Below, piece after piece: positions 20,701 through 21,755 of a DNA stretch of 64,000 nucleotides (positions are counted from its first letter, which is position 1; each line of letters begins with the position of its first letter). The stretch lies in IMG/VR virus record IMGVR_UViG_3300032285_001531; one strand, 5' to 3'. Source of the stretch: a virus (Duplodnaviria > Caudoviricetes). The translations under genes were made by a program, and so were the position numbers. The notes below the pieces were generated by a model. The model made no database searches. It was not told where the DNA came from and worked only from the letters and a program-made list of their open reading frames with translations.

Positions 20701-21531
20701 ATGGCAATAGAAAACAATCCGCTCAAGCAGTACTTTCGCAGACCTAGCATTTATTTGAAATTACCCAGCAAAGGAGTAGGATACGATACTGATGTATTAG
20801 TAATGACTGAAACCGGAGAACTACCAGTATATCCAATGACTGCTATTGATGAGATTTCTAGTAAAACCCCAGACAGTTTATACAACGGTTCCGCTGTAGT
20901 TGATATCATTAAAAGTTGTGTACCAAACATCAAAAATCCATGGAAAATCAGTAGCACAGATTTAGATGCCATTTTAGTTGCTGTTAGAATTGCAACAAAC
21001 GGTAATGAAATGGATATCGAAACTACATGTCCTAGCTGTAGTGAAGAATTAAAGTACGGCATCAACCTAAGTTTTATATTGAATAACTTCAGACCCGGTG
21101 ACTATGATAAGCCTATGGAGTTAGCTGAAATGAAATTCAAGTTTAGACCATTGAATTATAAAGAATTAACTGAAAGTGGTACAAGACAGTTTGAAATTCA
21201 AAAGACAATGGCCATGATTAATAATATGCCTGACGGTGATGAACGTGAAAAGAAATCCGGAGAATTATTAAAAACAATTACTGTTAGTACATTAGAAGTA
21301 TTGGCAAGTACAATTGAATCTATACAGATTCCTGATACAATTGTAACAGAAAAAGCATATATTATCGATTTTCTACAAAACTGTGATAAACGAATCTTTG
21401 AAGCAATTAAGGATAAAAGTGTATCACTTCGTGAAACTACTCAATTAAAACCATTGCAGATTAAATGTACTGCGTGTGAACATGAGTACGACCAAACATT
21501 CACATTGAATGTAAGCGATTTTTTCGACTAA
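20701..21531 (+). CDS. Baseplate hub/tail assembly chaperone, T4 gp26-like (276 aa)
   Basis: NPLKQYFRRP..YLKLPS N-terminus, PMTAIDE, DLDAILVAVRIAT, and two CxxC pairs (CPSC, CTAC). AGGAG RBS. Confidence 0.75.
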   Translation: MAIENNPLKQYFRRPSIYLKLPSKGVGYDTDVLVMTETGELPVYPMTAIDEISSKTPDSLYNGSAVVDIIKSCVPNIKNPWKISSTDLDAILVAVRIATNGNEMDIETTCPSCSEELKYGINLSFILNNFRPGDYDKPMELAEMKFKFRPLNYKELTESGTRQFEIQKTMAMINNMPDGDEREKKSGELLKTITVSTLEVLASTIESIQIPDTIVTEKAYIIDFLQNCDKRIFEAIKDKSVSLRETTQLKPLQIKCTACEHEYDQTFTLNVSDFFD

Positions 21532-21569
21532 AGCTTCTATACCTTGACTCCGAAGGTATAATGAAGCTT
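21519..21569 (+). promoter_or_regulatory. Programmed -1 ribosomal frameshift signal
   Basis: Slippery heptamer T TTT TTC (21519-21525), 5-nt spacer, then hairpin AAGCTTC-TATACCTT/GACTCCG/AAGGTATA-(AT)-GAAGCTT (21531-21569). The -1 frame is open and joins ORF 21561-21755. Confidence 0.8.
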
Positions 21570-21755
21570 ATTGATTCTATGGAGAAGGATACCAAAGCTA
21601 TTAAAAAGAATGCACAAAGAATAGCTTGGTATATGCGCGGCGGTATATCTTACACTGATGTATTGAATATGAGTCCAGATGAAATACGTGCAGCCAATGA
21701 AATCATAGAAGAAAATTTAGAAACAACAAAGAAATCAAATATACCATTCTTCTAA
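21561..21755 (+). CDS. gp51-like / gpT-like chaperone C-terminal segment (64 aa alone; probably expressed as a -1 fusion from 21519)
   Basis: WYMRGGISYTDVLNMSPDE resembles the short 'T' chaperone segments. It is in the -1 frame of the upstream gene, and its ATG is buried in the hairpin. Confidence 0.7.
   Translation: MKLIDSMEKDTKAIKKNAQRIAWYMRGGISYTDVLNMSPDEIRAANEIIEENLETTKKSNIPFF

Follow-up and report, generated by a model that had tools for sequence, protein, structure and literature searches.

A probable programmed −1 frameshift that would yield gp26-type and gp51-type baseplate-hub chaperones from a single phage gene

The subject of this analysis is a gp26-like baseplate-hub assembly gene in a 64,000-nucleotide (nt) stretch of phage DNA (IMG/VR record IMGVR_UViG_3300032285_001531; Duplodnaviria, Caudoviricetes), referred to here, at its full length, as the window. 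It is highly probable that a conserved programmed −1 frameshift takes place at a slippery heptamer near the 3′ end of this gene. To almost the same degree we consider it likely that two-way decoding, into a 276-amino-acid (aa) product of the gp26 type and a 351-aa product of the gp51 type, is the whole explanation of the locus. As far as comparison among sequences can carry them, the signal, its conservation and the gp26/gp51 equivalence of the products can be regarded as shown. The features of the locus, which occupies positions 20701–21755, are as follows.

20701–21531, plus strand: gp26-like baseplate-hub assembly gene; 0-frame short product of 276 aa (PF12322, phrog_150)
21519–21525, plus strand: slippery heptamer T_TTT_TTC, X_XXY_YYZ in the 0 frame; invariant in the window's clade
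21529–21531, plus strand: 0-frame stop TAA, one codon past the heptamer; a stop here is invariant in the clade
21531–21569, plus strand: stem-loop of 15 base pairs with a 2-nt bulge and a 7-nt loop, probably the frameshift stimulator; includes ATG 21561
21519–21755, plus strand: −1 frame extension of 78 codons plus stop, the likely equivalent of the T4 gp51 C-terminal domain
21561–21755, plus strand: 64-aa open reading frame (ORF) of the kind that a gene caller would report, with its ATG within the stem

The gp26-like ORF ends AGC GAT TTT TTC GAC TAA. The −1 frame is open from 21486 to 21755 and, from the heptamer on, reads FFRLKLLYLDSEGI and then the MKLIDS... of the 64-aa ORF. The ORF end, heptamer, stem and −1 frame are all present as the initial annotation had described them, and the fusion of about 350 aa that it had predicted comes to 351 aa (273 + 78) when computed from the open −1 frame. 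It had also described the downstream ATG as sequestered in the stem and served by a weak ribosome-binding site; in the RNA fold, ATG 21561 overlaps the bulge at 21561–21562, and an AAGG motif lies 5 nt 5′ of it. An in-frame X_XXY_YYZ within the last 10 codons is found in one of the 32 long frames of the window, and that frame is the gp26-like ORF. Taken from the window alone, the case is only suggestive; it is the comparative data that put the slip site far beyond chance. The set compared consists of 157 loci, each with a single PF12322-family gene and a complete 3′ end, the window itself counted.

The window itself: 1 locus
IMG/VR loci of the window's clade: 59
Atu_ph07, Phosso, GAP32 and PA5oct: 4
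SCTP-2, XaC1, CBB, RaK2, 121Q, XacN1, Xoo-sp13, CM1 and RsoM2USA: 9
595-kb megaphage LR756511: 1
Cyanophage S-H9-2: 1
Marine T4-like cyanophage loci from IMG/VR: 80
OLIVR5 (Pootjesviridae) and LPCS28 (Straboviridae, Nanhuvirus): 2

All 157 carry an in-frame T_TTT_TT(C/T), which is T_TTT_TTC in 153 and T_TTT_TTT in 4, and in every one the site lies at the same Phe-Phe motif, 3′ of the second CxxC. The −1 extension is open for 59–83 codons in all but one locus, in which it is cut by the contig end. Alignment of homologues for TTTTTT(C/T) and an open −1 frame, named by the initial annotation as a check, has thus come out in favour of the slip site, with that single contig-cut extension. Among 44 gap-free loci of the window's clade, the heptamer and the G that follows it have zero entropy; the three 0-frame third positions of the heptamer are invariant, against an average of about 1.3 bits at neighbouring third positions. 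By tblastn, the gp26-like protein finds jumbo myophages only, at 22–33% identity (Atu_ph07, Phosso, GAP32, RaK2, 121Q, PA5oct, XacN1, SCTP-2 and others). The closer relatives are 61 IMG/VR loci at 32–73% identity, and a nucleotide search of the locus against GenBank phages gave no match. A synteny that recurs in the relatives runs from the portal gene to a structural protein of 700–830 aa, the divergent gp26-like gene and the small ORF.

Two members of the set have slip sites of another form. The site of RsoM2USA (L073, gene 1183–1983) is a run of nine T, GTT TTT TTT TCC, and not T6C; on a run this long, RNA polymerase as well as the ribosome could slip. In megaphage LR756511 (L075, about 1880–2120), there is a double heptamer, G_GGT_TTT_TTC, and the 0 frame runs on for 23 codons. 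The small downstream ORF of this megaphage has its own ATG overlapping the stop (TAATG), and both routes of expression may exist there side by side.

If the small ORF were a gene in its own right, where would it start? An ATG at the window's codon is found in 3 of 50 unique relatives. The first ATG of the extension is at codon 3, 4, 13, 14, 16, 17, 20, 32, 34 or 38, or there is none, and in cyanophages it lies 21 codons inside the conserved peptide in 61 of the 80 loci. By codon position, the −1 frame has entropies of 0.85/0.61/1.39 across the extension as a whole and of 0.80/0.70/1.38 in the linker that precedes the window's ATG, so that third-position wobble is present in the linker as well. 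On the 5′ side, a −1 stop lies directly before the heptamer in 21 of the 50 unique loci. The peptide is conserved from the heptamer on without a conserved start, and an independent start therefore cannot explain its conservation. Separate translation of the 64-aa ORF is probably not the main route by which this sequence is expressed. Pfam and PHROG scans of the extension alone returned noise only (E > 0.005), and as a single sequence it has no match to phrog_150 or phrog_634.

The RNA fold of 21519–21600 has 15 pairs, 21531–21545 with 21553–21560 and 21563–21569, enclosing a 7-nt loop; the bulge at 21561–21562 falls inside the ATG, and the spacer from the heptamer is 5 nt. This segment has a minimum free energy of −18.7 kcal/mol, for a z-score of −2.0; of 200 shuffles, 6 are as stable. 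Covariation was tested on an 11-pair core in 41 clade sequences; the inner helix was set by hand because the RNAalifold consensus gave the outer 6 pairs alone, the bulge shifting the register. In this core, 88% of cells are paired, versus 40–57% with slid partners, and double-change cells number 41, versus 14.3 ± 3.5 after shuffling, with none of 500 shuffles reaching 41. Compensatory stem changes among homologues, a further check named in advance, were accordingly found in excess, at 6 of the 11 pairs. For distant clades, cyanophages included, single-sequence folds predict hairpins of other sequences at a similar distance. No upstream element near the heptamer is conserved in the clade alignment.

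The 276-aa protein matches PF12322 (T4_baseplate) with an E value of 1.9e-18 and 67.4 bits, the gathering cut-off being 24.5, and phrog_150 ("baseplate hub") with E 1.1e-21. A split four-Cys zinc ribbon (C110, C113, C256 and C259) and the residues F274 and F275 are invariant in 45 homologues. The same two-CxxC pattern is found in T4 gp26, in T4 gp51 and in natural in-frame long forms of the protein, which are described below. The AlphaFold model of the short form has a predicted local distance difference test (pLDDT) value of 86.4 and a predicted template modelling (pTM) score of 0.80. T4 gp26 and T4 gp51 are paralogues, and both are full matches to PF12322. The phrog_150 profile is covered over 13–280 by gp51, 14–235 by gp26 and 5–232 by the short form of the window; gp51 therefore consists of a gp26-like domain followed by a tail. 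The profile built from the predicted fusions aligns collinearly across the junction with a 92-sequence gp51 profile (T4 gp51 and 91 homologues), residues 48–340 against 30–248, with P 4.7e-5. The extension alone aligns in hhalign with the last 28 residues of gp51 at a score of 27.9 (P 2.9e-5), and 30 column shuffles of it score 10.8 ± 2.8, with a maximum of 21.5. Of the gp26/gp51 pair that the initial annotation had read from the two ORFs, the PF12322 gene and the gp51-type extension stand, while the 64-aa ORF is not a whole gp51. Because the extension matches the C-terminal domain of gp51 only, the counterpart of gp26 would be the short product, and that of gp51 the 351-aa fusion. T4 has two PF12322 genes, and Atu_ph07, Phosso, GAP32, PA5oct, S-H9-2, RaK2, XacN1 and RsoM2USA have one each.

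Long forms of the protein also exist without a frameshift. A search of 1.84 billion representative proteins with a hidden Markov model (HMM) of the extension gave 499 matches; among the best 150, 20 proteins of 319–351 aa and one 167-aa fragment end in the extension domain. In these in-frame long forms, the short-form HMM stops exactly where the extension HMM starts, at the junction predicted for the fusion; the sequence there is ...F-R-x-x-L, with one Phe only, and that non-slippery. One natural long form folds as a single unit (pLDDT 89.2, pTM 0.83), with residues 271–346 forming four helices, and in BFVD this fold matches solely myophage "baseplate hub (assembly) protein" entries. Two of the in-frame long forms were located on contigs, and each lies directly 3′ of a shorter PF12322 gene (294 and 318 aa), so that the two-gene layout of T4 recurs here in tandem.

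In one contig with such tandem PF12322 paralogues (L158), the short gene occupies 411–1295 (294 aa) and the long gene 1334–2389 (351 aa). The short paralogue keeps AAT TTT TTC, with its −1 frame shut after two codons, and has lost all four zinc-ribbon Cys residues; its AAT TTT TTC looks like a relic of a slip site. The junction of the long paralogue is the non-slippery AGT TTC AGA.

Phages of the T4 type with two genes serve as controls; these Straboviridae were taken from GenBank, since an IMG/VR scan with T4 gp26 gave only 7 loci. None of eight Straboviridae gp26 genes has an in-frame heptamer, and five of the eight have an annotated divergent gp51 gene alongside. Their motif is GA(G/A) TT(C/T) TTT, for example GAG TTC TTT, or is changed to FV, FL or IL, and gene 25 directly follows. 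The single-gene LPCS28 and OLIVR5 have GAT TTT TTC with an open extension. In an IQ-TREE phylogeny of 46 N-terminal domains, with a midpoint root only and several long branches, the T4-type gp26 and gp51 clades are sisters (91/69). These two nest among genes of the frameshift type, namely those of LPCS28 (98/96), of cyanophages (82/21, a weak node) and of OLIVR5, and the frameshift clade of the window has the in-frame long forms as its sister group (99/99). The simplest reading of this tree would be an old frameshift state that gave way to duplication on two or more occasions.

We propose the following course of events. Most ribosomes would end at TAA 21529 and release the 276-aa short form, the counterpart of T4 gp26. 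Some would pause at the stem-loop (21531–21569) with two tRNA-Phe on UUU UUC; the tRNAs would slip back one base onto U_UUU_UU, and the −1 frame would then be read to 21755. The resulting 351-aa long form would carry an extra four-helix domain resembling the C-terminal domain of T4 gp51. The long form is presumably the minor product. Both forms may be non-virion chaperones of hub and tape-measure assembly, their ratio being fixed by the slip, in the manner of gpG and gpGT of phage λ.

That the slip is ribosomal and not transcriptional is the reading we favour. A polymerase that added one U at the T6 run would produce some mRNAs encoding the fusion in one frame, and a homopolymer of six T could indeed let RNA polymerase slip; runs are longer in some relatives (T7 in XacN1, Xoo-sp13 and CM1, T9 in RsoM2USA). 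Peptide data cannot separate the two mechanisms because the junction peptide is identical. Efficient polymerase slippage, however, usually needs about 8–9 T (Atkins et al. 2016, PMC5009743), so that six is short, and exactly six T followed by C, in X_XXY_YYZ register, are found in 153 of the 157 loci. The preceding base is never T in the window's clade, and thus the run is held at six and not lengthened. A covarying stem 5–7 nt downstream is, moreover, the classic ribosomal stimulator. We therefore regard transcriptional slippage as quite unlikely.

Two ordinary genes, with the small ORF translated from its own start or by reinitiation and the heptamer merely coding for Phe-Phe, would make a still less likely arrangement. 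It accords with the AAGG found 5 nt upstream of the window's ATG, with the separate small ORFs annotated in GenBank records, such as the cyanophage "baseplate hub assembly catalyst", and with the presence of Phe-Phe in T4 gp26 too. It fits poorly with a start codon that is not conserved, extensions that in some cases have no ATG at all and a peptide conserved from the heptamer on; the ATG of the window, for its part, is buried in the stem. The synonymous sites of the heptamer are invariant, whereas two-gene phages write Phe-Phe with non-slippery codons or have lost it (FV, FL, IL), and the natural in-frame fusions show the predicted junction. As for an artefact or decay, that is, a sequencing error among the T residues or a pseudogene that the loss of one nt has broken in two, homopolymers are error-prone and the in-frame long forms are one frame away from the frameshift type. 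Yet the same architecture recurs in 157 independent assemblies, finished GenBank genomes from several platforms among them, the 0-frame stop is kept one codon past the site and purifying selection acts on both parts, which leaves this explanation a negligible probability.

Several points weigh against a programmed ribosomal frameshift with gp26-type and gp51-type products, or against parts of it. The fusion protein, though very probably made, is a prediction from sequence. In the window, ATG 21561 with its weak Shine-Dalgarno-like AAGG makes a free 64-aa product possible. The z-score of the stem, in this single sequence, is only −2.0, and the homology of the extension to gp51 is moderate, with an hhalign probability of 68–74%. 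CBB_250, the gp26-like homologue in Pectobacterium phage CBB (L069), is annotated as "structural protein", and this label, if it comes from virion mass spectrometry, would counter a purely non-virion chaperone role. As to the tail chaperones of phage λ, the gene here, unlike that of λ, is divergent from the putative tape measure gene and not directly upstream of it in the same operon. The Pfam matches of the gp26-like protein include no TAC family; Foldseek found nothing in the Protein Data Bank (PDB) at E ≤ 1e-3 and nothing meaningful in AlphaFold Swiss-Prot, and a wide search with VIA gave generic helical hairpins only (Z ≤ 8.7). A G/GT-like role of the gp26/gp51-type forms is a reasonable suggestion, by analogy only. 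Thus, of the link to the G/GT system drawn in the initial annotation, the likeness of design, with short and long forms, holds, and no sequence or fold link to the G and T families was found. The core of that annotation, a programmed −1 slip at T_TTT_TTC that fuses both ORFs, is strongly supported by the comparison.

Two genes on the opposite strand adjoin the locus.

18483–20618, minus strand: 711-aa protein, putative tape measure, divergent from the gp26-like gene
15960–18479, minus strand: 839-aa protein, a paralogue of the 711-aa one, carrying a peptidase domain of the VanY type (PF02557)

Transcription is thus divergent, as the initial annotation had it, with the gp26-like gene on the plus strand and both of these on the minus strand. 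That both are tape-measure genes, as it also held, is plausible on weak evidence. The N-terminal region of the 711-aa protein resembles the GAP32_244 virion structural protein (E 7e-7), its RaK2 counterpart is annotated as similar to tape measure, and the named Atlas clusters closest to it are those of tape measure proteins (score 0.94); it has no Pfam or PHROG match. The wide spread in length among its homologues, 710 to 974 aa, is a further weak sign of a tape measure, and most relatives have a single such gene. The 839-aa protein has PF02557 at residues 642–703 (E 1.2e-5), its N-terminus resembles GAP32_244 (E 1e-3), and an N-terminal region of about 180 aa is common to both proteins.

Downstream of the locus, at 22220–25588 on the minus strand, lie genes for a PDDEXK/RusA-like resolvase of 185 aa, then for a gp46-type SbcC/Rad50 protein of 587 aa (phrog_77, E 7e-100), and then a further ORF of 338 aa. 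A similar resolvase-SbcC/Rad50 neighbourhood is found in Atu_ph07, GAP32 and PA5oct. No terminator-like site was found at 20550–22000. The T4 late-promoter octamer TATAAATA has no copy upstream of the gp26-like gene or anywhere in the window, on either strand, and dinucleotide shuffles lead one to expect 14.8 ± 3.8 copies. This suggests avoidance, or another late-promoter motif in an AT-rich (35% GC) phage.

Almost all long-tailed phages are considered to frameshift in their tail chaperone genes, and to our knowledge no frameshift site has been described for T4-type phages. In the literature searched, we found no published report of a frameshift in genes of the 26/51 type, and the virion proteome study of phAPEC6 offered no usable information on the gene. 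At none of the 24 GenBank loci examined is a joined coding sequence (CDS) given; the extension is annotated there as a small separate ORF or left unannotated, and in cyanophages and OLIVR5 it is called "baseplate hub assembly catalyst". The site described here is a candidate for the slip site of the tail-chaperone type in T4-type phages, in a different protein family. It would offer an explanation for a T4 puzzle: gp26 and gp51 would correspond to the short and the long form, respectively, of a single ancestral gene. More than 100 records appear to be mis-annotated, since the small ORFs labelled "gp51" in marine cyanophages, like many labelled "hypothetical" in jumbo phages, would each belong to a fusion protein. 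Recoding and gene duplication would here act as interchangeable solutions, in a clean natural example. The claim is directly testable in cultured phages such as 121Q, RaK2, PA5oct, LPCS28 and cyanomyoviruses.

It is tempting to go further and suppose, as a possible if rather doubtful extension by analogy, that the gp26/gp51 family is the gpG/gpGT of the T4 superfamily. Many short forms would coat a gp29-like tape measure, and a rare long form would dock the complex onto hub or tube-initiator proteins via the extra helical domain, the slip rate setting the ratio. If this were true, frameshift-controlled chaperoning of the tape measure would be universal in long-tailed phages, and at least two lineages, the T4-type Straboviridae and the tandem-gene relatives of the window's clade, would have swapped the frameshift for duplication.

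Among known systems, the Escherichia coli dnaX gene (tau/gamma) also combines a heptamer, a downstream stem-loop and a nearby stop to give two products at a set ratio. The shorter dnaX product is the one that comes from the shifted frame, which terminates immediately, and a Shine-Dalgarno-like element upstream of the site contributes as well. In the window it would be the longer product that arises by the shift, and the clade alignment shows no conserved upstream element. Also comparable are the small ORFs of cyanophages and Pootjesviridae annotated as "gp51 baseplate hub assembly catalyst". The records give them as free-standing proteins of 46–60 aa. In S-H9-2, OLIVR5 and 80 of 80 IMG/VR cyanophage loci, however, they turn out to be this −1 extension, placed behind the heptamer described here. 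The comparison indicates that they would be the C-terminal part of a frameshift fusion.

The gpG/gpGT pair of phage λ and the conserved −1 frameshift in tail chaperone genes of long-tailed phages go back to Levin 1993 and to Xu, Hendrix and Duda 2004, 2013 and 2014, as reviewed by Atkins et al. 2016 (PMC5009743). As in λ, a small tail-assembly gene beside a tape measure gene, here a putative one, would undergo a −1 slip close to its 3′ end and give short and C-terminally extended products with a common N-terminal part. A further parallel is that T4 gp51 is missing from the phage particle. The heptamer here is U_UUU_UUC, whereas that of λ is G_GGA_AAG.

In T4, gp26 and gp51 are listed as hub assembly chaperones; gp51, though needed for the baseplate to assemble, is not part of the particle, and gp5, gp27 and gp29 are found in the hub (Leiman et al. 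2010, PMC3004832). T4 gp26 (208 aa) and gp51 (249 aa) both belong to PF12322, and gp51 also to PF28602. The products predicted here belong to that family and have its split zinc ribbon too; the Phe-Phe motif at which the short form ends is that of gp26, the long form is collinear with gp51, and the gene likewise lies near hub and tape-measure genes. The extension here is 78 aa, against about 55 in gp51, and identity is low. T4 and its close relatives have two diverged paralogues on opposite strands without a slippery site, whereas here one gene would give both forms. One gene with slippage would thus do what T4 does with genes 26 and 51.

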